DNA of 64,000 nucleotides from an uncultured beta proteobacterium (GTDB lineage Bacteria > Pseudomonadota > Gammaproteobacteria > Burkholderiales > SG8-41): the NCBI GenBank assembly GCA_902825845.1, contig CADECM010000005.1, positions 5,048-69,047 on the forward strand, read 5' to 3'. Of the stretch, positions 3,498-49,507 are shown in pieces. Each line of letters starts with the position of its first letter. Position 1 is the stretch's first letter. The notes beneath the pieces were generated by a model that was given only the letters and a program-made list of their open reading frames with translations, ran no database searches and had not been told where the DNA came from. The position numbers and the translations under genes are program-made.

Positions 3498-3761
3498 TGC
3501 CAGGCACCTATCGTCGCAAGCTCAGCGACGGTGGCAACAAGGCGCGCCGACTGCAACCACGATGGCCCGATGCCGTTCGCCGAAGCGCATGCTTAGGTCG
3601 CATTGCCACCGTCAGCAACATACCCTCGACGACCATCGTCCCTTGCTCTTTCGTTGAAAGTTGAAATGCAACCGCGACCGGCCGCTCCTGGCCGCAAAGA
3701 GCCCGCCGATATAGATGTGAAAATCTGCTCCGCCGCAACGGAGCCAAGGTTGAAATGCGCG

Positions 3762-4592
3762 CTACGGGGTCGCGTGCTTGCGGATGAATTCTTTCATCCG
3801 GTCGAGCGCGCGCGCCGCATACGGGGCGTTCGGCTTGCCGGTCATGAAGCCGTGGTCGGCACCCTCGTAGATCTGCAATTCGGCTTGCCCGCCGGCCTTG
3901 TTGTAGTCGGCGACGAAGCTGCGCATCAGTTCCACCGGGACCCACTCGTCTTTGTCACCGCCAAATACCAGTGCCGGCGGCAGTGCGCATTTCTCGCCCC
4001 GCTTCAGCATCGTCGGCGGCGCCGCCTCGGCATGCGCCTCTTCGGTCAGCCAGAATGTGTTGTGGTGATGCACCAGCTCCTGTTTGCCGCCCTGCTTCGC
4101 CAGGTTGTAGCGCAGCAGCGGGTCGAGCACTCCCCAACCGGAGATCACCCACGCCTGCGTCGCGTCTACGCCGGCCGGGCCGGGCAGAATGGTGTAACGC
4201 GGATCCGTCGGCCGCATCGCGGCCAACAGCACCTGATGCCCGCCGCTCGAGGTGCCGAACGAGCCGACCCATTCGGAGCGGCAGCCGAACGACCGCGCAT
4301 TCGCCTTGAGCCAGCGCACGCCGAGGTTGATGTCCTGGATCGAGCCGGGATGAGGTGCCACCGGCGGCATGCGAAAATCGATCGAGGCGACGAAGATGCC
4401 GCTTTCAGCCAGCGCCTTGGCCATGAAGTCGTTGTCGGTGCGGTCCTTGCTGGTCCATGCACCGCCGTGCACCTGCAGTGCGGCGGGAAACGGCCCGGTG
4501 CCCGCCGGCCGGTACAGACGAGCCAGCATGCCGGGCTGATATTCGACATCCTCGATGGTGATGGCGGGACTGGCGGCGATCGTGTCGGGCAT
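3762..4592 (-). CDS. Alpha/beta hydrolase (esterase/lipase, hydrolase fold-3 type)
   Basis: Contains the HGGAW oxyanion motif, the GTSSGGH nucleophile elbow (GxSxG) and a C-terminal DHGF. The start at 4592 is preceded by AAAGGAGAAAGCC. Confidence 0.85.
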   Translation of the reverse strand: MPDTIAASPAITIEDVEYQPGMLARLYRPAGTGPFPAALQVHGGAWTSKDRTDNDFMAKALAESGIFVASIDFRMPPVAPHPGSIQDINLGVRWLKANARSFGCRSEWVGSFGTSSGGHQVLLAAMRPTDPRYTILPGPAGVDATQAWVISGWGVLDPLLRYNLAKQGGKQELVHHHNTFWLTEEAHAEAAPPTMLKRGEKCALPPALVFGGDKDEWVPVELMRSFVADYNKAGGQAELQIYEGADHGFMTGKPNAPYAARALDRMKEFIRKHATP

Positions 4593-7943: not shown

Positions 7944-8921
7944 TCACTCGATGCGGATATTGGCCGCCTTCACCACTTTGAGGTAACTGGTGATCTCCGA
8001 TTTGATCATGGCGCTGAATTCGTCAGGCGTTAAGACAAGCGGGACCATGCCGATGCCGTTCAACTTTTCCCGCGTGGCGGGTTGCGCCAGCATGGCGGCA
8101 ATTTCCGCCGACAACTTGTCGACGATCGCCTTCGGCGTGCGGGCAGGCGCAAGCACACCGTTCCAGGTCTTGACATCGAATCCCGGCAGGCCCGCTTCGG
8201 CGAAGGTGGGCATTTGCGGCAGCGCGGTCAGCCGCGTGCTTCCAGTCACCGCAACCGCCTTGAGCTTGCCGGCCTTGACGTGCCCAATGATGTTGACCGG
8301 CACTGAAAAGAACATCTGCACCTGTCCACCCATCAGATCGATCATCGCCGGTCCTGCGCCCTTGTACGGGATATGCTGCGTCCTGACGCCGGCCACCAGA
8401 TTGAATAGTTCCCCGGACAAATGGGTCGGCCCACCGGCGCCGGAGGAGGCAAAGTTGAGTTGCCCCGGCTTTGCCTTTGCCAGCGCAATGACCTCCTGCA
8501 CGGTGTTGGCCGGCACCGCGGGATGCAGCACCAGCACTTGCGGCGCGACACCGATGGTGGCCACCGGCGCAAAATCCCGGACCGGGTCATACGGCGTCTT
8601 TGTAATACTGGAAAGGATGGCATGGGTGGTCGTCGCCAGCACAATCGTGTGGCCATCCGGCGCAGACCGCGCGAGCGTCTCGATACCGATAATGGTATTG
8701 CCGCCGGGGCGGTTGTCGACGATCACATTCTGGCCCCAGCGTTCCGTGAGATGCTGCCCGACCAGCCGGGCCATGTACGAGGTGCTGCCGCCCGGCGCAT
8801 AGGGCGTGATAAACCGGATCGGTCGGTTCGGGTAACTCTGTTGTGCGATGGCGGCGCCCGCAAACGCCAGCGCCAATAGCGCCGCTAGTAACGTGACGGT
8901 CCGCGAATGCTGTTCGGCCAT
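7944..8921 (-). CDS. Bug-family (TctC-like) substrate-binding protein
   Basis: The internal ATG at 8921 gives a signal peptide ending AFAGAAIAQQ, then YPNRPIRFITPYAPGGSTS and VDNRPGGN. Confidence 0.9.
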   Translation of the reverse strand: MAEQHSRTVTLLAALLALAFAGAAIAQQSYPNRPIRFITPYAPGGSTSYMARLVGQHLTERWGQNVIVDNRPGGNTIIGIETLARSAPDGHTIVLATTTHAILSSITKTPYDPVRDFAPVATIGVAPQVLVLHPAVPANTVQEVIALAKAKPGQLNFASSGAGGPTHLSGELFNLVAGVRTQHIPYKGAGPAMIDLMGGQVQMFFSVPVNIIGHVKAGKLKAVAVTGSTRLTALPQMPTFAEAGLPGFDVKTWNGVLAPARTPKAIVDKLSAEIAAMLAQPATREKLNGIGMVPLVLTPDEFSAMIKSEITSYLKVVKAANIRIE

Positions 8922-9099
8922 GCCTGCTCCCTTGCAATCTGCAACGATAGTTCGGTTGGGTTTCCGGCGTAGCCTACCGCGACGGCGGCCGCTGCGCAAA
9001 GCCGCTGCAAATTCCCGTATTGCATGCGGACCATGGGTTGTTCTGACCGGCGCACCGTGCAAGAATTACAAGCATCTACTGCCTCAAAGGAGAAGCACG

Positions 9100-9885
9100 A
9101 TGCCCTGGATTGAAGCGAATGGTGCGAGTCTGCGCTACGAACTGAGCGGCACCGGGAAGGATACGCTGGTGCTGGTGCACGAGGCCGGCGGTTGCCTGGA
9201 CAGTTACGAGGACGCGCTGCCTGCGCTGGAAAAAGCGTTTCGCGTACTGCGTTACGACCAGCGCGGCTTCGGCTTTTCGGAAAAGGCGCGCGAACTCACC
9301 TTTGACATGGTGGTGGCCGACCTGGCGGGACTGCTGGATGCGCTGAAGATCAGCGGGCCGGTGCATCTGGCCGGCTGTGCGATGGGCGCCGATTTCTCCG
9401 TGGGGTTTGCCTCGCGCCATCCGGAACGCGTGGCAAAACTGGCAATCGCCAGCCCCAACATCGGCCACAACGGCCCGCGCAGCCCGCAAAGCATGGAGCG
9501 CGCGGCACAAGCCGAACGCGAGGGCATTCGTGCCGTGATGCAGGCGAGCCACGACCGCTCCTATCCCGAGAATCTGCGCGCGCTCGATCGCGAACGCTTC
9601 CGGCGCTACCAGGCACGCTGGGTTTGCAATACACCGGCGTCATTCACTGCGCAGGCGCGCATGATGAGCACCTCGGACCTCACACCTGATTACCCGAAGA
9701 TCAAGGCGCCGACGCTGGTCATCGGCTGCACCCACGATGCGCTGCGTCCCCCCGAAAAAGCGCAACAGGTGGCCAAGGCCATCGCCGGCAGCAAATACGT
9801 GGTGGCCGACACCGGACACTTCATGCATCTGGAAACGCCGCAGTTGTTCGTGGACACGGTGCTGCCGTTTTTCACCGGACGATAA
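9100..9885 (+). CDS. Alpha/beta hydrolase (enol-lactonase-like)
   Basis: The start at 9100 is preceded by AAAGGAGAAG. Contains VLVHEAGG, a LAGCAMGA nucleophile elbow (Cys or Ala in the Ser position region) and a C-terminal DTGHFMHLE. Confidence 0.8.
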   Translation: MPWIEANGASLRYELSGTGKDTLVLVHEAGGCLDSYEDALPALEKAFRVLRYDQRGFGFSEKARELTFDMVVADLAGLLDALKISGPVHLAGCAMGADFSVGFASRHPERVAKLAIASPNIGHNGPRSPQSMERAAQAEREGIRAVMQASHDRSYPENLRALDRERFRRYQARWVCNTPASFTAQARMMSTSDLTPDYPKIKAPTLVIGCTHDALRPPEKAQQVAKAIAGSKYVVADTGHFMHLETPQLFVDTVLPFFTGR

Positions 9886-9895
9886 AGGAAACGGC

Positions 9896-10870
9896 ATGTT
9901 GAATCCGGCGATGCGCAATCGTGTTGCGGCGTTATGTGTGGCGTTGGGTTGCGCGGGTGTCGCGGCGGCCCAGCCGAAATATCCCACCAAACCGATACGG
10001 CTGCTGACGCCGTTTGCGGCGGGTGGCGGCTCCGACATTCTGGCGCGCCTGATCGGGCCGAAATTGCACGAGGCGTGGGGCCAGCCCATCGTCGTCGACA
10101 ATCGCGGCGGCGGCGGCGGCACACTGGGCGCGGGCATCGTCGTTGCCGCGGTGCCCGACGGCTACACCTTGATACTGGTGTCGGCCAGTTACGGTGCCAA
10201 CGCAGCGCTGTATCGACTGCCTTACGATTCGGTGACCGGGATAACGCCGGTCATTTTGATCGGCGAGACCGGGCTGGTGGTTACCATGCCGCCCGCCTCT
10301 CCGATACGCAGCATGAAGGCATTTATCGCCGACGCGCGGGCGAATCCCAACAAGTACAATTTCGGCTCCTCCGGCAGCGGCGGTCTCGGGCATCTGGCGG
10401 GCGAGTTGTTCATGCTGGAAAGCAAGGCAAAACTGTCGCACGTGCCGTACAAAGGCAGCGGGCCGGTGATGACGGCATTGCTCAGCGGCGAAGTACACAC
10501 CAGTTTCAGCAGCATCGTGCCCAGCATTCCGCATATCAAGGCAGGCCGCCTGCGCGCCATCGGCGTCACGCCCCCCAAACGCGTTAAGGCCTTGGCCGAG
10601 GTGCCGACCATCGGTGAAACCGTGCCGGGATACGAAGTGATTCACTGGTATGGCATCTGGGGGCCCAAGGGATTGCCGGACAACGTTGTCGGGCTGTGGA
10701 ACAGGGAAGTCGCGCGCATCCTGAAAACCGACGCCATGCAAACCTGGTTTGCGAGGGAAGGCATGGAACCGGCCGGCGGGCCGCCGGATCAGTTCCGCGA
10801 CCGTATTCGCAGCGACGCCGAAAAATGGAAGCGCGTGGTGCGCGAAGCAAAGATTCCGGTCGCCGGATGA
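9896..10870 (+). CDS. Bug-family (TctC-like) substrate-binding protein
   Basis: Signal peptide, then YPTKPIRLLTPFAAGGGSD and VDNRGGGGG. About 60 percent identical by eye to the copy at 1864-2829. Confidence 0.9.
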   Translation: MLNPAMRNRVAALCVALGCAGVAAAQPKYPTKPIRLLTPFAAGGGSDILARLIGPKLHEAWGQPIVVDNRGGGGGTLGAGIVVAAVPDGYTLILVSASYGANAALYRLPYDSVTGITPVILIGETGLVVTMPPASPIRSMKAFIADARANPNKYNFGSSGSGGLGHLAGELFMLESKAKLSHVPYKGSGPVMTALLSGEVHTSFSSIVPSIPHIKAGRLRAIGVTPPKRVKALAEVPTIGETVPGYEVIHWYGIWGPKGLPDNVVGLWNREVARILKTDAMQTWFAREGMEPAGGPPDQFRDRIRSDAEKWKRVVREAKIPVAG

Positions 10871-10888: not shown

Positions 10889-11827
10889 ATGCAGACCGCC
10901 GAACTCACCCGCATCATCCGCGAGATCGGCCGCGGCAAGAACGCGGCACGCGACTTAAACCGGCAGGACGCGCGCGCGCTGTTCGCCGCGATGCTGGACG
11001 GCGACATTCCGGATCTGCAGCTGGGCGCGGTACTGATGGCGCTGCGCATCAAGGGCGAATCGCTCGAGGAACTGGCCGGCTTTCTCGAGGCCTGCGAGGC
11101 GTGTTACCCGCATCTGCCGGCGCCCGCGGGTACCGTGCCGCTGGTGATTCCCGCGTACAACGGCGCGCGCCAATTGCCCAATCTAACGCCCTTGCTGGCG
11201 CAATTGGTGGCGCGTGCGGGCGTGCCGGTGCTGGTGCAGGGCGTGACGCATGACCCGGGACGCGTGACCACGCATGACGTATTTGCCGCGATGGGCGTCG
11301 CGCCCGCCGCCAGCACCGATGAAGCCGGCTTGCAGTTGCGCAATCGCGGCTTCGCGTTCATCGCCATCGACGTGCTGGCGCCGCCGCTGGCGCGCGTGCT
11401 CGCGATACGGCAGAAGATGGGTGTGCGCAGTTCGGGCCACACGCTGGCGAAGATGCTGCAGCCTTTCACCACACCGGCGGTGCGGCTGGTGAGCGTGACG
11501 CATCCCGAATACCTCACGCGCATGCGCGCGTTTTTCACGGGCTACGCGGCGCAGGCGCTGCTGTTGCGGGGCGCGGAGGGTGAAGCGGTGGCGCATCCGC
11601 GGCGCGAGCCGGCGATCGACTGGCTCGATGGCGGCTCGGTCGCGAGCTGGAACGCGGGTGCCGCCGAAACGCCGCTCTTGCCCGATAGCCGCGATGCCGC
11701 GGTGACCGCCGCGTGGATTCAGGAGGCGCTCGCGGGCACGCAGCCGGTGCCCGCCGCCATCACGCATCAGGTGACGTGCTGCATTAGAGCGGCACAATGC
11801 GTGGCCCGCGAACGGCCCAGGTCCTGA
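10889..11827 (+). CDS. Glycosyl transferase family 3 / TrpD2 (YbiB-like) protein
   Basis: The N-terminus IIREIGRGKNAARDL...LGAVLMALRIKGESLEELAGFLEA resembles the anthranilate phosphoribosyltransferase-like YbiB family. Confidence 0.75.
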   Translation: MQTAELTRIIREIGRGKNAARDLNRQDARALFAAMLDGDIPDLQLGAVLMALRIKGESLEELAGFLEACEACYPHLPAPAGTVPLVIPAYNGARQLPNLTPLLAQLVARAGVPVLVQGVTHDPGRVTTHDVFAAMGVAPAASTDEAGLQLRNRGFAFIAIDVLAPPLARVLAIRQKMGVRSSGHTLAKMLQPFTTPAVRLVSVTHPEYLTRMRAFFTGYAAQALLLRGAEGEAVAHPRREPAIDWLDGGSVASWNAGAAETPLLPDSRDAAVTAAWIQEALAGTQPVPAAITHQVTCCIRAAQCVARERPRS

Positions 11828-12107
11828 ATCGCGTCGATCACAATGCCGGTGCCGAGCGCGCGTAGCGGTAGCCTGGCGGCGAAAGTCTGATTTGTGTCAC
11901 CAGCGTGGACGGCAGATCGTAATAGACCACGTCGCGCGGGATCGGCCTGCCGATTTGCGGTCTGCGGTGTGATTGTGGGCAACGCATCCGCGTTCTGGTT
12001 CTCTGTGGCGGGTGAGGCCAGGCGGGCAACCCGCGCCGGTAACTCTGGCCATAATAGTCGCGAATATGGTGCCGCGTACTTTACGGCGCCGTCCGACGGC
12101 GTACGCG

Positions 12108-13061
12108 TCAGATGCTGTATTCGCGCGACTCGCGCTCGGCAGACATGCGCAATGCCGATTCAATCGTGGCGCGCGTTAAATTAGGAGAAAATAATTCAAT
12201 AAAATCATATACATATGATCTTATCTCAACACCATGGCGCAGCGCCAGGCGGGTCATGCTGCTGGCAAACAGATGCGATGCGTCGATCCTGCGCAAATCA
12301 TTGTCGGTGCGTTCGTCAAACGCCATCGCCGCGATGATGCCGACACCGAGGCCTTCCCTTACGTAGGTCTTTATGACGTCCGAGTCCAGCGCCGTCAACA
12401 CAATGTCCGGTTGCACGCCGGCACGGGCGAACGCCGCATCAATGTGGGGACGTCCGGTAAAAATCACTTCATACGTCACGAGGGGATGGCGCGCCAGTTC
12501 TGCGAGGGTCGGGCGTACCACGTCCGTTAGCGGATGATCCGGCGGCACTACGAGCACATGATTCCATGAGTAACAGGGGAAGCTCAAAAGGTCGTCGGCG
12601 AGCGCAAGTGATTCGGTGGCAATGCCGACGTCCGCGTCACCGCTGCGCACCGCATCCACGATGCGCTGCGGCTCGTACTGGTGGAACGCGAGTTTCACCT
12701 TGGGAAACCTGCGCCGGAACTGCGCCACCACGCGAGGCAGCGCGTAACGAGCCTGCGTGTGAGTGGTTGCTACCACCAGATCGCCCTGATCACGGCTGCG
12801 AAAGTCGGCTGCCGTGGTTCGCAAGTTCGCCTGCTCCAACAGCAGGCGCTCGACAATGGGCACGATTTCCCGTCCGGCAGCTGTGTAGCCCGTCAGGCGC
12901 TTGCCGTGGCGGGCAAACAACTCCACGCCAAGCTCCTGTTCCAATTCGCGAATTTGCCGGCTGATCGCCGGCTGCGTGGTGTGCAGCACCTGCGCCACCG
13001 TCGACAGGTTGAAGCCCTGATGCGAAGTTTCCTTGACCGCACGCAGTTGTTGGAGATTCAT
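12108..13061 (-). CDS. LysR-family transcriptional regulator, CysB/Cbl-like
   Basis: The N-terminal HTH reads MNLQQLRAVKE...NLSTVAQVLHTTQPAISRQIRELEQELGVELF. It is divergent from the sulfite reductase operon across a 250-bp AT-rich gap. Confidence 0.85.
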   Translation of the reverse strand: MNLQQLRAVKETSHQGFNLSTVAQVLHTTQPAISRQIRELEQELGVELFARHGKRLTGYTAAGREIVPIVERLLLEQANLRTTAADFRSRDQGDLVVATTHTQARYALPRVVAQFRRRFPKVKLAFHQYEPQRIVDAVRSGDADVGIATESLALADDLLSFPCYSWNHVLVVPPDHPLTDVVRPTLAELARHPLVTYEVIFTGRPHIDAAFARAGVQPDIVLTALDSDVIKTYVREGLGVGIIAAMAFDERTDNDLRRIDASHLFASSMTRLALRHGVEIRSYVYDFIELFSPNLTRATIESALRMSAERESREYSI

Positions 13062-13148
13062 GTTAATTGTTGGATTTCAGGCTGACACAAATAAATTACA
13101 AATGGAATGGTGGGGCATTGCCCACAAAACAGGTCAATAGACTTTATA

Positions 13149-13166
13149 TAACCTATTGTTATTAAA
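13149..13166 (-). repeat. AT-rich motif, copy B
   Basis: The minus strand reads TTTAATAACAATAGGTTA. Lies in the cysB-like/cysI divergent region. Confidence 0.7.
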
Positions 13167-13312
13167 CATATAGTTTTTTGTAAAGGAATTTTGTCACAGT
13201 ATATATATCACAAATTATATAAGTAAGTTCAAAAATAGTACTTTACAGCATATAACGTTTCATCGATCATCGCAACCCTGTCAAAACGGCAATCAAAACA
13301 AGGGCGTTCGAC

Positions 13313-15013
13313 ATGTATCGATATGACGACATCGACCAGCGGATCGTGGCAGAGCGAGTGGCCCAGTTTCGCGACCAGACCCGGCGTTTTCTGTCCGGCC
13401 AGTTGGGCGAAGACGAATTCAAGCCGCTGCGCCTGCAAAATGGCCTTTACATTCAAAAGCATGCGCCGATGCTGCGGGTGGCCATTCCGTACGGCCTGCT
13501 GTCCTCCGCGCAGGTGCGCATGTTCGCGCACATCGCGCGCAAGTACGACCGCGGCTACGGCCACTTCAGCACGCGCCAGAACATCCAGTACAACTGGCCC
13601 AAGCTGGCGCAGGTGCCGGACATTCTCGCCGACCTGGCCAAGGTCGAAATGCACGCGGTGCAAACCAGCGGCAACTGTATCCGCAACATCACGACCGACC
13701 ATTTTGCCGGCGTCGCGCCCGATGAAATCGTCAACCCGCTGGTATGGACCGAGGTGCTGCGGCAATGGTCGACCTTTCATCCGGAATTCGCGTTTCTGCC
13801 GCGCAAGTTCAAGATCGCGGTGTCGGGCGCACAACAGGACCGCGTCGCGATGCAGTTGCATGACGTCGGTCTGCAGGCCGAGCGCAATGCGCAAGGCGAA
13901 GTCGGCTTCAAGGTTTACGTCGGCGGCGGCATGGGCCGCACACCGGTGATCGGCAAGGTGATCCGCGAGTTTCTGCCGTGGCAACACCTGCTCACCTATC
14001 TGGAAGCCATCATTCGCGTCTACAACCGCTATGGCCGCCGCGACAACCTCTACAAGGCGCGCATCAAGATTCTGGTGAAAGAACGCACGCTGGCGGTGTA
14101 TCGCGATGAGGTCGATGCCGAGTGGGCGCAGCTGGTCGACGGCCCGGGCACGCTGACGCGGGACATGGTGGAAGGCATCGCGGCGCGCTTCACGCAGCCC
14201 CCGTATCGCGCGCTGCCGAAGGCGGATTCCGAACTCAAGACGTATCTCGACGCCGAACCGGCATTCGCGCGCTGGCACGGCCGCAACGTGCATGCGCACA
14301 AGACGCCCGGCTACGCCGCGGTCACGCTGTCACTGAAGCGCCCCGGTGTACCGCCGGGCGATGTCACCGACACGCAACTCGAGGCGATCGCCGAACTGGC
14401 CGATCGATACAGCTTCGGCGAGTTGCGCGTGACGCACGAGCAGAACCTGGTGCTGCCCGACGTCGAGCAGCGCGAACTGCACGCGTTGTGGCGCGAAGCC
14501 CGCGCGCTGGGCCTGGCCACGCCGAACATTGGTCTGCTGACCAATATCATCGCCTGCCCCGGCGGCGATTTTTGTTCGCTGGCGAACGCGGTGTCGATAC
14601 CGGTGGCGCTGGCCATCGACGAACGGTTTCAGGATCTCGACTACGTGCACGACATCGGCGAACTGGACCTGAACATTTCCGGCTGCATGAATTCCTGCGG
14701 CCATCATCACGTCGGCCACATCGGCATCCTTGGCGTCGACAAAAACGGCGAGGAGTGGTACCAGGTTTCCATCGGCGGCGCGCAGGGCAATCACTCCGCG
14801 CTGGGCAGGGTGATCGGCCCCTCATTCGCGCGCGCGGATGTGCCGGACGTGGTGGAAAAACTGATCGAGTTTTATCTGGAACAACGCGATTCGCCCGAAG
14901 AACGCTTCATCGACGTGGTGCAGCGGCTCGGTGTCGAACCTTTCAAGAAACACGTCTATGCCAACACTGATAAAAAACAAACGCATCGCACCCGACAGCT
15001 GGCAGTTGCTTGA
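13313..15013 (+). CDS. cysI: Sulfite reductase hemoprotein-type (nitrite/sulfite reductase 4Fe-4S/siroheme family)
   Basis: 566 aa. Contains the siroheme/4Fe-4S cysteine cluster motifs CPGGDFC and SGCMNSCGHHHVGHIG. Followed by DUF934 and SUMT genes. Confidence 0.88.
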   Translation: MYRYDDIDQRIVAERVAQFRDQTRRFLSGQLGEDEFKPLRLQNGLYIQKHAPMLRVAIPYGLLSSAQVRMFAHIARKYDRGYGHFSTRQNIQYNWPKLAQVPDILADLAKVEMHAVQTSGNCIRNITTDHFAGVAPDEIVNPLVWTEVLRQWSTFHPEFAFLPRKFKIAVSGAQQDRVAMQLHDVGLQAERNAQGEVGFKVYVGGGMGRTPVIGKVIREFLPWQHLLTYLEAIIRVYNRYGRRDNLYKARIKILVKERTLAVYRDEVDAEWAQLVDGPGTLTRDMVEGIAARFTQPPYRALPKADSELKTYLDAEPAFARWHGRNVHAHKTPGYAAVTLSLKRPGVPPGDVTDTQLEAIAELADRYSFGELRVTHEQNLVLPDVEQRELHALWREARALGLATPNIGLLTNIIACPGGDFCSLANAVSIPVALAIDERFQDLDYVHDIGELDLNISGCMNSCGHHHVGHIGILGVDKNGEEWYQVSIGGAQGNHSALGRVIGPSFARADVPDVVEKLIEFYLEQRDSPEERFIDVVQRLGVEPFKKHVYANTDKKQTHRTRQLAVA

Positions 15014-15497
15014 ACCGGCCGCCGACGGCGGCTTGCCCGAGCTGCCGCTGACCGGCGACTGGGTGGTGCCGTTCGCGCTGTGGAAAGAGCAGCGTGCGCA
15101 AGGTGCGGGCGAGCGCAGCGGGCGCAACGGCGTGCTGCTGGAGAACACCGACGATCCGCGACAGCTGGTCGGGGACTTCGACAGGCTCGCGCTGATCGCC
15201 GTGCGCTTTCCGAAGTTCACCGATGGCCGCGGCTATTCGATTGCGCGCGAACTGCGCCGCCTCGGCTGGAAGGGCGAATTGCGCGCGGTGGGCGACGTGT
15301 TGCGCGACCAGTTGTTTTACATGACGCGCTGCGGCTTTGACGCGTTTGCACTGCGCGCGGATCAGGATGCGCAATCCGCGCTCACCGCATTCAGCGACTT
15401 CACCGCACCGTATCAGCCGGCGATTGATGACGGCGTGCGGCTGGGCTCGGCACGCGCCGAAACCACGCCGCCCGCCAACACGCTCAATCCGTGGTGA
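14958..15497 (+). CDS. DUF934-family protein associated with sulfite reductase
   Basis: Contains LIKNKRIAPDSWQLL...FPKFTDGRGYSIARELR, typical of the DUF934 partner of CysI. The start is uncertain (14958 ATG or 14931 GTG). It overlaps the cysI 3' end. Confidence 0.75.
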   Translation: MPTLIKNKRIAPDSWQLLEPAADGGLPELPLTGDWVVPFALWKEQRAQGAGERSGRNGVLLENTDDPRQLVGDFDRLALIAVRFPKFTDGRGYSIARELRRLGWKGELRAVGDVLRDQLFYMTRCGFDAFALRADQDAQSALTAFSDFTAPYQPAIDDGVRLGSARAETTPPANTLNPW

Positions 15498-45562: not shown

Positions 45563-46342
45563 ATGGCCACACAAGATCAACGCGTCCTTGAAGAATTTTC
45601 ACGTCAGGCTGCCGCCATGAGCGAAGCGGCCATCTTCAATGACGAGACCATCCTCAATCGCATCCGTGATTCTGCATGCGGTTCAAGCGGTGCGGCCAAT
45701 GTGCATGTTCTCGATGTCGCTTGCGGCCCGGGTATAGTGGTCGCCCATCTCGCGCCGCACTGCCGCCAGATCACCGGCTGCGACATGACGCCGGCCATGC
45801 TGGACAAGGCACGTGCACGAACGGCCGCCAAGGGCATTGCCAATGCGCATTTCGTACCCGGGCGGGTGGAGGCACTGCCGTTTGACGACGAAGCGTTTGA
45901 CGTCGTCGTGTCCCGCTCCGCGGTTCACCATTTCGCCGATCCGCCGGCGGCGTTCCGCGAAATGGCGCGGGTCACACGCACGGGCGGTCGCCTCATCACC
46001 GTAGACGTGGCGGCGAGTGAAACCGAAGCCGATGCAAAATTGCACAACGCGCTCGAAATCCTGCGTGATCCCTCCCATGTGCGCATGCTTTCCAGGAGCG
46101 AACTCCATCGCGCCATCGCGCAAGCGGGCCTCGCCATCGACGCGGCAGTGGCCTGGACCAACCACCGCGAATTCGACGAATGGATGAAGATCATCGACGC
46201 GCCCGAACGCATCGGCCCGCTCAAGGTGGTGATGACGGCACTGGCCGGGGCAGGCGTTGGCGCAGGTATTGGATTACGGCTGGAACAGGGCAGGCTGCGA
46301 TTTGCGCATCAACCCGCATTGACGGTCGCGGTGAAAGAGTAG
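45563..46342 (+). CDS. Class I SAM-dependent methyltransferase (type 11, UbiE/COQ5-like)
   Basis: Contains VLDVACGPGIV (motif I), PFDDEAFDVVVSRSAVHHF and GGRLITVDV. Its stop lies 12 nt before ORF position 46355 of the TIR gene. Confidence 0.85.
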   Translation: MATQDQRVLEEFSRQAAAMSEAAIFNDETILNRIRDSACGSSGAANVHVLDVACGPGIVVAHLAPHCRQITGCDMTPAMLDKARARTAAKGIANAHFVPGRVEALPFDDEAFDVVVSRSAVHHFADPPAAFREMARVTRTGGRLITVDVAASETEADAKLHNALEILRDPSHVRMLSRSELHRAIAQAGLAIDAAVAWTNHREFDEWMKIIDAPERIGPLKVVMTALAGAGVGAGIGLRLEQGRLRFAHQPALTVAVKE

Positions 46343-46405
46343 AAAAGCGGGGCTGTGCCACCGACCCCAGTGGATTCTGAACACGTTACTGTAACGGAGA
46401 TCGCC

Positions 46406-47623
46406 GTGACTCATGTGAACAAGCCAGCCGCCGTTTTCATTAGTTACCGCAGGGCGGATACACAGTCGTTCGCGCGCGACCTCCATAAGCACCTGGCGGC
46501 GGGCTTTGGCTATCACCGCGTTTTCATGGACCGCGCGGAGATTCGCGCTGGCCAGCGCTGGGCCGAGCGCCTTGACGAGGAGCTCGAGCGCTCCACGGTG
46601 GTACTGGCATTGATCGGTCCCCATTGGCTCAAATTGCAGGATGCAGATCATCGCCGCCGCATAGACGGTCCCGACGACTGGGTGAGACGGGAAATCAGCA
46701 CGGCTCTCACCGGAGGAAAGGAAGTTATTCCGATCTATGTCGGCGGGGCCGAGCGGATCAAGGATCCGAACAAGCTACCCGCGGATCTCGTGGACTTGCC
46801 CGCGCATGAACCTATTGAGCTGACCGAAAACTACTGGAATGCTGGAATGGCCGACTTGGTGCAACGGCTGGAACATTTCGGACTCCGTGCGGCGCGGCCG
46901 GATTTCCGCCTGCCCGCGCGGCTGAAGCATGTGGCACCGCTTTCAGCGGCGGAACTCGAAGCGGAGCTCGCCAAGCTACCGCATTGGACCCTTACCGGAG
47001 AAGAGCGCCGTATTCCGCATGCGGCGGGGCCGGTACCGCATAGCGAGCTGTACCGGGAATACGCGTTCAGCCGATTCGAACACGCTACCGCGTTCATGGC
47101 CCAGACCAGCGCAGAGATCAACAAGCGCCAGCACCATCCGCGCTGGGAAAACTTCTGGACCACCGTCCGGGTATGGCTCTCGACCTGGGACATCGAGTTT
47201 CAGCCATCAGCATACGATATCGCGCTGGCAAAATGGCTGGATCAGGCCTATCTTGAGTTCAAACCATCCCCGGCCAAAATTCCTGTCGACACCGTGGCGG
47301 CGGCACCCGCCTCAACGGGTGTTCCGACACGTATGGCCAATGACGAAGTGCAGCGGCGACTCATCGCGCTGACAGGCTGGTCCCTGGTGGCAGGCAAGCT
47401 TGAGCGTACGCTGCAGTTTGGCGACTTTCAGTCTGCTTTTGGTTTCATGACATCCGTAGCGCTGGCGGCCGAGACCCTGAATCATCACCCCGAGTGGTTC
47501 AACGTGTACGATACGGTGCGCATTCAACTCACCACGCACGACGCCGGCGGCATCAGCGAAAATGACTTTAAGCTGGCTCAACGCATTGACGCACTGGCTG
47601 CCAGGCACGGCGTGCGGCCATAG
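46406..47623 (+). CDS. TIR domain protein fused to two pterin-4a-carbinolamine dehydratase (PCD/DCoH)-like domains
   Basis: TIR region: [23 protein letters not shown]...[10 protein letters not shown]...[12 protein letters not shown]...[11 protein letters not shown]-like 1: [15 protein letters not shown]...[25 protein letters not shown] 2 (canonical): LTGWSLV...[64 protein letters not shown]. The GTG at 46406 follows GGAGA; an alternative GTG start is at 46355. Confidence 0.8.
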
Positions 47624-47896
47624 CCCGTGGAAATCGGAGAACCATTCGATCCGCAAAGTCGCAGCCCGATAGCGCGCAAAGCCCGCGCTTGGGACAACTA
47701 CTGACGTAAAGACCCGTTCGCTGAATTGCGCGGGCCGACGCGTTCCAGAAACGCCTCGCCGGCATTGCCACGCCGATTTGTCACTTGCCAATGTCGGAAA
47801 CATGTTCAATGATGTTGCCTGCGTCAGACCGGATGGCAAGCACCGGCCGGGCAAACGCTTCCCCACGCCAACGCCGTCGCAATGAAGGAGACAAAC

Positions 47897-49507
47897 ATGG
47901 TGTCCCGGGTAAGACGATCCATCGAAGACCTCCAGATCGCCTACGAGCGTGGCGACAAGAAGCCGCTGGAAACTGTCATGCGTGCCTGGAAAGGCATCAA
48001 GGACCTTCCGCCAGACAATCCTGATTCATTCTTCGTGATCGGCGGCTACCACGGCGAGCCGTTTCGCGGGGCGGGCTGGGGCAATTCCGGCTTCTGGGGC
48101 GGTTATTGCAACCACGGCAATGTCTTGTTCCCGAGCTGGCACCGCGCCTATCTGCTGCGACTTGAAGACGCAATGCGCGCCATTCCCGGCTGCGGGGACG
48201 TCACGCTGCCGTTCTGGGACGAATGCAGCCCTGCATCGGTCAACAATGGCATTCCGTGGGCGCTGACGGTGGAGAGCTTTGCACTGGACGGCGCAATCAT
48301 TCCCAATCCGTTGAAGTCGTTCACCCTCAGCCGCCAGATTGTCGATCACATCGCTGGCGACACTCCCAACTACAGCAAGCCCATCGGCTACGAGACTGTG
48401 CGCTATCCACTGTCGGGTCTGGTGGGAACGCCGGACGACATCACGAAATCGAAAGCGCACAACGCGAAGTATCCGAACTATCAGTACAACGTAGGGCTGC
48501 TCAACGCCAATATCGTCGCATGGCTGACCTCCTATATCGAGGTGGGCGACGGCGCGAACAAGCAACGCATTCCGACCAACACGGCAAAGAAATGGGCGGA
48601 CTGCCTGAACGCGCCGAACTACACGGTATTTTCGAATACCACCTCGGCCGCCGAGTGGAACGGCAATCTGCCTGCCGGTGATGCACGCGTGGTGCCGATC
48701 GAATCGCCGCACAACGATATGCATCTCGCGGTTGGCGGCTTCGACGTTCCGAGCGGCCCGAACGCGGGAAATTTCTCGCAGGCCGCCGGCGCCAACGGCG
48801 ACATGGGCGAGAACGACACCGCGGCGTTCGACCCCATATTCTATTTTCACCATTGCTACGTCGACCGCATGTTCTGGCTGTGGCAGAAGAAGCACGGCGC
48901 AACCGGCACGCTGGAAATCATCCCGCACTACCCGGGCACCAATACCGTGGATAGTCAGGGGCCGACACCCGGCGTCGCGCCGAATGCCTGGCTGACGGTC
49001 GAATCACCGCTCGATCCCTTCAGGAAGCGCGATGGGAGCCCCTACACCACGTGCGACCTGGTCAATATCGAAACGCAGCTCGACTACACCTATGGACCGG
49101 GTTCGTTCGACGATCACGTCGCGCCGAACGCGGAACTTGCCCGCGCCGGCCCGGGCACCGCGCTGCATGTCCACGTCGGCGGGGTGGATCGCGGTATCGT
49201 TCGCGGCTCATTCATCATCTCGGCTTTCGCCAGCGTGGACGGCAAGTTGCAGCACATCGGCACGGAATCCGTGCTCAGTCGCTGGCATGTCGAAGGATGC
49301 GCCAACTGCCAGACGCATTTAAAAGCCAGCGCGGCGATCCCCATTCAGGGGGCTTTGACCGCGCCCGGCGGTGCCCCGGAAATCCACGTCGAGGTGCGCA
49401 CGCGTGACGGCCTGCTGCCGACGCATGGCGCCCCGCCCGGCGCGAGCGCGGTCGCCCTCACACCCGCGGCTGCGGCGCGGCCGCGCTTCCGCGTCCAGGT
49501 TCGCTGA
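47897..49507 (+). CDS. Tyrosinase/polyphenol oxidase (type-3 copper protein) with a long C-terminal extension
   Basis: CuA: GYHGEPF...CNHGNVLFPSWHRAYLLRLE. CuB: SPHNDMHLAVGG...AAFDPIFYFHHCYVDRMFWLWQ. The ATG at 47897 follows AAGGAGA. About 170 residues follow CuB. Confidence 0.85.
   Translation: MVSRVRRSIEDLQIAYERGDKKPLETVMRAWKGIKDLPPDNPDSFFVIGGYHGEPFRGAGWGNSGFWGGYCNHGNVLFPSWHRAYLLRLEDAMRAIPGCGDVTLPFWDECSPASVNNGIPWALTVESFALDGAIIPNPLKSFTLSRQIVDHIAGDTPNYSKPIGYETVRYPLSGLVGTPDDITKSKAHNAKYPNYQYNVGLLNANIVAWLTSYIEVGDGANKQRIPTNTAKKWADCLNAPNYTVFSNTTSAAEWNGNLPAGDARVVPIESPHNDMHLAVGGFDVPSGPNAGNFSQAAGANGDMGENDTAAFDPIFYFHHCYVDRMFWLWQKKHGATGTLEIIPHYPGTNTVDSQGPTPGVAPNAWLTVESPLDPFRKRDGSPYTTCDLVNIETQLDYTYGPGSFDDHVAPNAELARAGPGTALHVHVGGVDRGIVRGSFIISAFASVDGKLQHIGTESVLSRWHVEGCANCQTHLKASAAIPIQGALTAPGGAPEIHVEVRTRDGLLPTHGAPPGASAVALTPAAAARPRFRVQVR

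Follow-up and report, generated by a model that had tools for sequence, protein, structure and literature searches.

Why should a bacterial gene join a TIR domain to two copies of the pterin-4a-carbinolamine dehydratase (PCD/DCoH) fold? The question was raised by the window analysed here, the whole stretch of 64,000 nucleotides of contig CADECM010000005.1 from an uncultured beta proteobacterium, in which a single uninterrupted open reading frame (ORF) of 422 amino acids (46355..47623, forward strand) encodes a TIR_2 domain, a variant PCD and a canonical PCD. An earlier note on this DNA had pointed out the fusion, and the observation of a TIR and two PCD folds in one gene was confirmed. The variant PCD, named PCD-W here because a Trp stands at its third catalytic His, defines the family. 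PCD-W derives from PCD and has been combined again and again with TIR, CHAT and effector-associated domain (EAD) components. What makes the gene interesting is this widespread, mis-annotated family; the fusion is no isolated case, and neither pterin metabolism nor the tyrosinase gene next to it accounts for the interest.

Gene structure and domain architecture

Pfam, NCBIfam and the combination of AlphaFold2 with Foldseek agreed on the three domains that the earlier note had called. On Pfam, TIR_2 matched residues 27-157 (E = 8.6e-19; 68.7 bits against a cut-off of 28) and Pterin_4a matched in two stretches (E = 5.7e-50), the best of them being residues 326-414, while the NCBIfam PCD equivalog NF002018 scored 173.6 bits (cut-off 108). 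The AlphaFold2 model of the protein, built from a 28-sequence alignment, had a mean predicted local distance difference test (pLDDT) of 86.9. Foldseek against the PDB gave top matches of two kinds only, PCD/DCoH and the TIR of SARM1/TIR-1, all with a probability of 1.00. The PCD/DCoH matches were 3jst (TMt 0.90), 1f93, 3hxa and 2v6u (TMt 0.81-0.90 for 3jst, 1f93 and 2v6u), and the SARM1 TIR matches had a TMt of 0.81-0.84 at 28-30% identity. The profile and structure searches thus supported the TIR fold and both PCD folds, and the quoted motifs were all found in their places: FISYRR at residues 28-33, W109-x3-E113, HHPRWEN...LSTWD at residues 260-279 and HHPEWFNVY...LTTHD at residues 377-396.

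Public gene calls begin the ORF at GTG 46406, which gives 405 amino acids. This GTG is probably the true start because GGAG (46396-46399) lies 6 nucleotides before it, and no domain is affected by the choice. The features of the gene are as follows.

46355..47623, forward: whole ORF, TIR-PCD-W-PCD, 422 amino acids from the GTG of the longest ORF; stop codon 47621-47623
46433..46876, forward: TIR domain, SARM1-like; Pfam TIR_2 residues 27-157, modelled fold to about residue 174
46436..46453, forward: FISYRR motif, residues F28-R33, equivalent to SARM1 F565-R570 (phmmer alignment)
46529..46552, forward: D59 to G66, equivalent to SARM1 D594 to G601, the BB-loop Gly (phmmer alignment)
46679..46693, forward: W109-V-R-R-E113, equivalent to SARM1 W638...E642; predicted catalytic Glu codon 46691-46693
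46877..46939, forward: TIR-to-PCD linker with conserved Pro187 (R-L-P-x-R/P); lower pLDDT
46940..47263, forward: PCD-W module, residues 196-303, variant PCD/DCoH fold; first Pterin_4a stretch
47132..47152, forward: HHPRWEN, residues 260-266; His pair kept, R263 and E265 being clade-specific swaps of the canonical E and F
47186..47191, forward: W278-D279; Trp for the third catalytic His (STHD to STWD)
47264..47329, forward: inter-PCD linker, Ala/Pro-rich; pLDDT 58-72, length variable among the 17 long forms
47330..47605, forward: canonical PCD module, residues 326-417; best Pfam stretch 326-414, NCBIfam equivalog
47483-47497, forward: HHPEW of the canonical module; third His H395 at 47537-47539

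Pro187 of the first linker was invariant in the alignment that adds short homologues to the long forms.

The variant PCD module

When the PCD-W module was compared with PDB sequences using phmmer, it matched the Toxoplasma gondii PCD 2v6s (E = 1.7e-10), and W278 aligned exactly with the third catalytic His of the Toxoplasma and mammalian PCDs. The Trp that had been noticed in the first module therefore stands at precisely that position in crystallised PCDs, and it was found there in 92% of PCD-W domains. A reading of the first PCD as a decayed copy was not supported: this module is the most conserved part of the protein and defines the family, and the canonical second PCD is optional. HHPRWEN-x-W-x-TVRVWLS-x-WDIEF was invariant or nearly so in the 17 long-form homologues, and the same was true of the HHPRWEN...STWDI block across phyla, short homologues included.

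Residues were then compared between 266 PCD-W domains and 30 canonical PCDs fused or adjacent to PCD-W. The core and pocket positions common to both groups were W211, F238, F241, H260, H261, P262, W264, N266, T277, D279 and D288, and four systematic switches separated canonical PCD from PCD-W (E to R263, F to E265, Y to W268 and H to W278). A pocket kept yet remodelled under such strong constraint is more easily reconciled with a change of ligand specificity or catalysis than with lost function. Judged by this pattern of conservation, PCD-W is best described as a family-defining module and not a decayed copy.

The TIR domain

The best match of the TIR domain among PDB sequences was the SARM1 TIR (phmmer, E = 1.3e-8), with the next TIRs outside SARM1/TIR-1 at E > 0.1. 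SARM1 numbers were counted along the aligned SARM1 sequence from G601 and agree with the PDB titles 'G601P mutant' and 'E642A'. The codon at 46691-46693, which the earlier note had proposed for the catalytic Glu, encodes E113, and this residue aligned with the Glu of the SARM1 WVHKE segment (E642).

Conservation within the family was counted over 172 TIR domains of nearly full length. None of them lacked E113 or D59 (172/172 each), W109 was kept in 169 and G66 in 146, and in the FISYRR motif the conserved positions were F (166), Y (167), R (167) and R (161). The strict retention of E113 and the NAD-pocket residues argues for an active enzyme and not a scaffold; by its sequence and predicted fold the TIR is placed with the SARM1 type of NADase, and it looks catalytically competent. 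The same TIR clade was also seen joined to a C-terminal FGE-sulfatase domain or a long low-complexity region (P0120, 635 amino acids; P0119, 581 amino acids), fusions which mark the TIR itself as a modular N-terminal unit.

Distribution and domain partners of the family

The protein database held 151 homologues at E <= 1e-5, nearly all with TIR_2 and Pterin_4a, and every homologue with a source name was labelled 'pterin-4a-carbinolamine dehydratase'. A scan of one genome per species gave 219 loci confirmed by tblastn, and with such numbers chance can be set aside as the source of the architecture. These spanned Burkholderiales (Ralstonia, Paraburkholderia, Variovorax), Acidobacteriota, Planctomycetota, Verrucomicrobiota, Saprospiraceae, Thiothrix/Thiolinea, Cyanobacteria (Nostoc, Leptothoe, Stenomitos), Actinomycetes (Frankia, Lentzea, Nonomuraea, Actinoplanes) and others. 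Chromosome 3 of Ralstonia pickettii RAL3 (CP158805.1) carried three paralogous short-form TIR-PCD-W genes (L013, L030 and L071). The distribution is thus patchy over many phyla and multi-copy in one replicon, and with such patchy phyletics, paralogues and contexts that vary even at 70-100% identity, the TIR-PCD-W gene is not a housekeeping gene. The earlier note knew of no described TIR-PCD architecture. In the literature searched, neither such an architecture nor any link of TIR or defence to PCD/DCoH was described, so this part stood; the fusion is nevertheless not unique, being a widespread family already present in databases.

A HMMER search with PCD-W alone returned 722 clusters (50% identity) at E <= 1e-3 and 152 at E <= 1e-10. 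Trp occupied the third-His position in most of the best 148 representatives, whose domain partners were classified by Pfam as follows.

TIR_2: 58/148
EAD11: 8/148
EAD7: 1/148
CAP12/Pycsar-type TIR: 2/148
CHAT: 2/148

One TIR-PCD-W-WD40 protein and one reversed PCD-W-TIR protein were also present among the 148, and CHAT-PCD-W, CHAT-PCD-PCD, PCD-W×2 and a four-repeat PCD protein were further architectures. EADs are homotypic adaptors, not enzymes, by which effector or signalling domains are tethered to the STAND, MoxR-vWA or GTPase cores of conflict systems, and EAD-coupled conflict systems are enriched in multicellular bacteria (PMC7159879). DCoH or pterin domains are not mentioned in that work (Kaur, Burroughs, Iyer and Aravind 2020) or in its 2021 sequel. 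From its partners, which include two TIR families, CHAT and EADs, PCD-W is a shuffled module of conflict systems. In other systems TIR and CHAT effectors are joined to domains that sense second messengers, SAVED and cNMP-binding domains among them; by analogy, since the same effectors are involved, PCD-W would fill the sensor or oligomerisation slot.

The canonical PCD as fused or neighbouring partner

The canonical module gave 43-45% identity with 3jst and DCoH on Foldseek, with a root-mean-square deviation of 1.4-2.0. A C-terminal canonical PCD was confined to a Burkholderiales-centred subgroup, and the commonest architecture of the family was TIR and PCD-W only, of about 290 amino acids. 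A separate canonical PCD gene (95-127 amino acids; HHPEW/HHPDW...THD/THE) directly adjoined the PCD-W gene in 7 of the 80 genome loci, downstream in L019, L023, L051, L063, L081 and L084 and upstream in L058. The loci belonged to unrelated lineages, namely Paraburkholderia, Alphaproteobacteria, Xanthobacteraceae, Aquabacterium, an unclassified betaproteobacterium and Saprospiraceae. A PCD that is fused in some genomes and encoded by an adjacent gene elsewhere is a classic sign that the two modules are partners, physically or functionally. For the two-module fragment of the window protein, a template modelling score (pTM) of 0.73 was predicted despite the disordered linker of about 25 residues, which suggests that the two PCD modules pack together.

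Two further arrangements of PCD modules were observed. In a Saprospiraceae metagenome-assembled genome (MAG; L084 9905-10865), a TIR-less PCD-W-EAD11 gene (222 amino acids) overlapped the start of the canonical PCD gene (100 amino acids); a PG_binding and peptidase_M15 gene came next after the canonical PCD, and an Ntox23-like ORF was located at 3542-4492. The metagenomic representative P0125 (554 amino acids) contained four tandem PCD repeats, each with HHPEWSNVW...TTDD and hence Asp at the third-His position; by its sequence it is a likely single-chain mimic of the PCD tetramer and a further variant type.

Genomic neighbourhood

The genes of the window upstream of the fusion gene encoded SecB, GpsA, a ClC channel, TauE, a chromate transporter, PadR and an S-adenosylmethionine-dependent methyltransferase, and those downstream encoded a tyrosinase, GST, TctC, a hydrolase, an enoyl-CoA hydratase and a PAS histidine kinase. 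The two direct neighbours are as follows.

45563-46342, forward: S-adenosylmethionine-dependent methyltransferase; ends 12 nucleotides before the longest-ORF start and 63 nucleotides before the probable start
47882-49507, forward: tyrosinase, 541 amino acids, PF00264 (E = 1.4e-43), with a long C-terminal extension; 259 nucleotides downstream of the TIR-PCD gene

Neither neighbour proved to be a partner. The upstream methyltransferase was kept only in the same-species contigs L001 and L002, and its match to the PADLOC model mad2 (E = 6.6e-23) is most likely generic methyltransferase similarity. The tyrosinase, which the earlier note had left unmentioned, is incidental. As part of a pterin/tyrosine-melanin operon it was rejected, because BLAST found it in 0 of 84 other loci and because it has a promoter-like site (47785-47813) and a Shine-Dalgarno sequence of its own, the likely true start being ATG 47897 behind AAGGAG. 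A regular-expression test of the 10-kb flanks of 84 loci, flanks only, showed no iron-site signature of aromatic-amino-acid hydroxylases. With no hydroxylase signature there and no conserved partner of any kind, the suggestion that the fusion links NAD and pterin metabolism gained no support from the genomic context.

When about 5,100 ORFs of 85 loci were clustered all-against-all, no conserved neighbour was found, and a conserved operon partner was rejected. The biggest cluster was SDR, with 12 loci; ABC transporter, LysR, WD40 and integrase families came after it. The 130 immediately flanking proteins fell into 107 different Pfam families, the commonest being another TIR_2 protein (4), with integrases, TPR-S proteins and Phd antitoxins next, in pairs each. 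A GC-composition island was likewise rejected, as there was no clear compositional anomaly around the window gene. Since no neighbour is conserved, the phyletics are patchy and mobile-looking, and association with defence islands is weak, the gene is taken as a stand-alone unit; its link to conflict systems comes instead from the shuffling of PCD-W with TIR, CHAT and EAD.

Contexts were variable and differed even among relatives at 70-100% identity. The relatives L003 and L004 (72-80% identity) lay in contexts quite unlike that of the window. In L003 (1-21212; ENA ERZ27314201 k119_138726), the genes encoded a TIR-WD40 protein (1133 amino acids), TIR-PCD-PCD, TIR-TPR-S, a 140-amino-acid ThsB-like TIR and a TIR joined to a TGT-like domain; this island was bounded by IS91/IS66 transposases and an integrase and also held PfkB, Ogg-HhH and QueC. 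The TIR-TGT/QueC/Ogg cluster hints at a 7-deazaguanine-linked system. The neighbours in L004 were DUF4062-NACHT-WD40, TPR-S, TPR-S-patatin and PIN genes, and some family copies were found in TIR/STAND/TPR-S/patatin islands beside transposases. The copy in L079 was flanked by a SLOG-like and TIR protein (430 amino acids; 8583-9875, reverse strand) and a TIR-NACHT/STAND protein (1194 amino acids; 11715-15299, reverse strand). Flanking genes encoded a TIR-trypsin protein in L054 and two further TIR_2 proteins in L061. In a Chloroflexia MAG (L082 7698-10501), a transposase ORF (8398-9921) split the TIR part from the PCD-W part. Frameshifted copies in the long-read MAGs L073, L077, L079, L080 and L083 may be pseudogenes or assembly indels.

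Plasmid or phage carriage was rejected as a general explanation, with one plasmid copy and no phage copy found. The plasmid copy is a short-form TIR-PCD-W gene of Rhodococcus jostii RHA1 pRHL1 (NC_008269.1 1089419-1090289, reverse strand), with 31% identity over residues 23-302; its host is a model organism amenable to genetics. A phage-encoded PCD as trigger or mimic was also set aside: the predicted viral structures of BFVD gave no significant match to a PCD-like fold, and a PCD-like ORF was seen in two uncultured phage contigs only. These are human-gut 'Bacteriophage sp.' contigs (MT835479.1 52561-52866 and MT835996.1 19545-19838) whose canonical-PCD-like ORFs are 34-38% identical to module 2, and they could represent a phage-borne PCD or contamination.

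Proposed mechanism

The preferred reading, to which we give an even chance, is that the protein is a stand-alone conflict or stress effector in which a SARM1-type TIR NAD+ glycohydrolase would be controlled by the C-terminal PCD/DCoH-derived module. The ligand- or oligomerisation-gated NADase suggested in the earlier note is thereby kept as the best reading, with both the activity and the gating predicted from residues and folds. PCD/DCoH folds are obligate dimers and tetramers, as established for DCoH (e.g. PDB 1dch and 1f93). PCD-W, here paired in cis with the canonical PCD as a pseudo-heterodimer, would act as an oligomerisation hub, the role that SAM domains have in SARM1. Its pocket, mostly kept (His-His-Pro-x-Trp, Asn, Thr and two Asp) and remodelled at R263, E265, W268 and W278, would most likely bind a small heterocyclic ligand or a partner protein and not act as a housekeeping dehydratase. 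The ligand or partner would shift the assembly state and bring the TIRs into the head-to-tail contact required for NAD+ cleavage, and the outcome would be NAD+ depletion or a product derived from ADP-ribose (ADPR). The biological role may be anti-phage or other conflict, or stress-triggered dormancy or death.

Several observations weigh against this reading. The His pair is retained, so PCD-W could still be a working dehydratase, and the published COG2154 activity motif reportedly tolerates a Trp in place of the third His. Of the 148 representatives, some 25-32 seem to consist of PCD-W on its own. Most copies, the window copy included, sit among ordinary metabolic and transport genes. The enrichment in defence islands that had been proposed was weak in the Pfam and PADLOC scans of the 130 flanking proteins, only about 6 of which matched specific PADLOC models, and it was dropped; PADLOC itself has no model for the TIR-PCD family and gave weak TIR-level matches only. 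A single full copy was present among 72,556 plasmid records, and there was no full copy in phage records.

A more far-reaching version, which we regard as doubtful but worth stating, holds that PCD-W arose from a pterin enzyme and is a new kind of domain for sensing small molecules, one that gates bacterial suicide or immune effectors such as TIR and CHAT, with the fused or adjacent canonical PCD making or destroying the ligand. Pterins and related heterocycles would be the candidates for this ligand, such as a 4a-hydroxy pterin, a quinonoid pterin or a metabolite derived from 7-deazaguanine or GTP. If true, immune or stress signals would here be based on pterins, and the canonical PCD would take the part that ring nucleases or cyclases have where the signals are nucleotides.

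Alternative explanations

A guard or decoy function is an unlikely alternative in which PCD-W would be a non-catalytic mimic of the cell's own PCD/DCoH, so that an invader protein that binds the host PCD, or loss or change of the host or fused PCD partner, alters the PCD-W assembly and frees the TIR NADase, and the canonical PCD, fused or adjacent, is an antitoxin-like inhibitor in cis or in trans. The repeated pairing of PCD-W with a canonical PCD, fused or in the neighbouring gene, is in its favour, and DCoH is seen to swap its homotetramer for partner complexes, as with the HNF-1 dimerisation domain in PDB 1f93. Inactive enzyme versions in such systems have been proposed as decoys (PMC7159879). 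However, about 69 of the 80 loci had no adjacent canonical PCD, the strong constraint on the His pair, the Asn and both Asp would be needless for a pure protein-binding decoy, and the predicted viral structures of BFVD include no PCD-like fold. We know of no phage factor that targets PCD.

It is also improbable that the TIR is a signal producer like Thoeris ThsB or plant TIRs, with PCD-W as the sensor and an ADPR-derived messenger activating a remote effector, possibly recruited via TIR-TIR or EAD contacts. Other TIR, STAND, SLOG-like and TPR-S proteins are encoded next to some copies, the EAD adaptors of PCD-W relatives imply multi-protein networks, and there is weak TIR-level similarity to the ThsB and ThcB4 profiles. 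Both profiles nonetheless stayed below threshold (ThsB_TIR 19.8 bits against a cut-off of 21.2; ThcB4 39 against 220), no ThsA-like or other neighbour is conserved, and in sequence and fold the TIR is nearest to the NAD-depleting SARM1 type.

A metabolic enzyme is very unlikely. The protein would then be a true 4a-hydroxytetrahydrobiopterin dehydratase for pterin recycling, perhaps serving a tyrosinase or hydroxylase, and the TIR would be an attachment for regulation or for binding NAD(H). The steps of pterin recycling that follow PCD do use NAD(P)H (PMC9737128). Module 2 passes the NCBIfam equivalog cut-off as a canonical PCD, the homologues are named PCD, and in the window a tyrosinase gene follows after 259 nucleotides; but the canonical module is missing from most family members, the tyrosinase is absent from the other 84 loci and no flank has a hydroxylase signature. 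The gene moreover has a patchy, multi-copy distribution and lies in differing contexts even in close relatives, the catalytic Glu of the TIR never varies, and PCD-W is also joined to CHAT peptidases and EAD adaptors.

A non-enzymatic TIR, whose sole function would be to bring a PCD-type enzyme or sensor into TIR assemblies by homotypic contacts as animal TIR adaptors do, can almost be dismissed: several unrelated L003 enzymes each carry an N-terminal TIR (TIR-TGT-like, TIR-WD40, TIR-TPR-S) like a docking tag, but the catalytic Glu is kept in 172/172 domains together with the NAD-pocket Asp and Trp, and to our knowledge scaffold-only TIRs such as those of animal adaptors generally lack that Glu.

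Significance

The joining of TIR NADases with domains for sensing or oligomerisation is central to bacterial, plant and animal immunity alike, and SARM1 is a target for drugs. What is new here is a remodelled PCD/DCoH fold as the partner module, attached repeatedly to TIR, to the caspase-like CHAT and to EAD adaptors. If PCD-W senses a metabolite, bacterial abortive or stress responses would gain signals of a new chemical class; if it is an oligomerisation hub only, it would offer a compact natural analogue of the SARM1 SAM ring, useful for studying TIR activation. A systematic error of annotation is also corrected: 219 or more loci of reference genomes, along with many others from metagenomes, are likely to bear the name '4a-hydroxytetrahydrobiopterin dehydratase', as do all homologues that have a source name.

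Comparison with known systems

Both C-terminal modules share the fold of PCD/DCoH (PF01329; PhhB, PCBD1/2), with a TMt of up to 0.90, and module 2 has the full His-His...His signature (H377, H378 and H395). Module 1 differs in having Trp for the third His, and so an incomplete His triad, together with R263, E265 and W268. Unlike PCD/DCoH, the modules are joined to a TIR, and in other proteins PCD-W is joined to CHAT or EAD domains; the 10-kb flanks of 84 loci showed no aromatic-hydroxylase signature in the regular-expression test. In the assembly factors RAF2 of plants and acRAF of alpha-carboxysomes, inactive PCD domains have been recruited for protein binding that involves no dehydratase activity (PMC5972614). 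These proteins are a precedent for PCD folds in such roles, but they are inactive PCDs in a Rubisco or carboxysome context, whereas PCD-W keeps the His pair and the pocket Asp. There were no Rubisco or carboxysome genes near the window gene or among the Pfam families of flanking proteins, and acRAF was not among the PDB sequence matches of the PCD modules on phmmer.

In contrast to Thoeris, the family has no adjacent ThsA-type effector and no conserved neighbour at all. It differs from CBASS and Pycsar in that no cyclase or CD-NTase was found in the window neighbourhood or among the 25 commonest of the 107 flanking Pfam families, and PADLOC gave weak TIR-level matches only. TIR-SAVED, the Pycsar TIR effectors and SAVED-CHAT share with it an effector repertoire (TIR_2, CAP12/Pycsar-type TIR and CHAT) joined to one small module. 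In the present family this module is PCD-derived and not SAVED, CARF or cNMP-binding, and there is no conserved signal-generating neighbour. The window protein lacks an EAD, and neither a STAND nor a MoxR-vWA core NTPase lies nearby, which sets it apart from the EAD-coupled effectors (Kaur 2020). The likeness to these is seen in PCD-W relatives that carry EAD11 or EAD7, in TIR-PCD copies that adjoin STAND/NACHT-WD40, TPR-S and patatin genes, and in the phyletic bias to cyanobacteria, actinomycetes, acidobacteria and filamentous proteobacteria.

SARM1 has an ARM sensor and a SAM octamer ring, both N-terminal to its TIR, while the window protein is bacterial, has its TIR at the N-terminus and has a PCD/DCoH-derived partner in place of ARM or SAM. 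SARM1/TIR-1 is nevertheless the best match in sequence and fold, with the equivalents of FISYRR, D594, G601, W638 and E642 aligned and conserved, and in both the TIR is tethered to a separate oligomerising domain. By analogy, the protein would work most like SARM1 and the bacterial fusions of an effector with a sensor.

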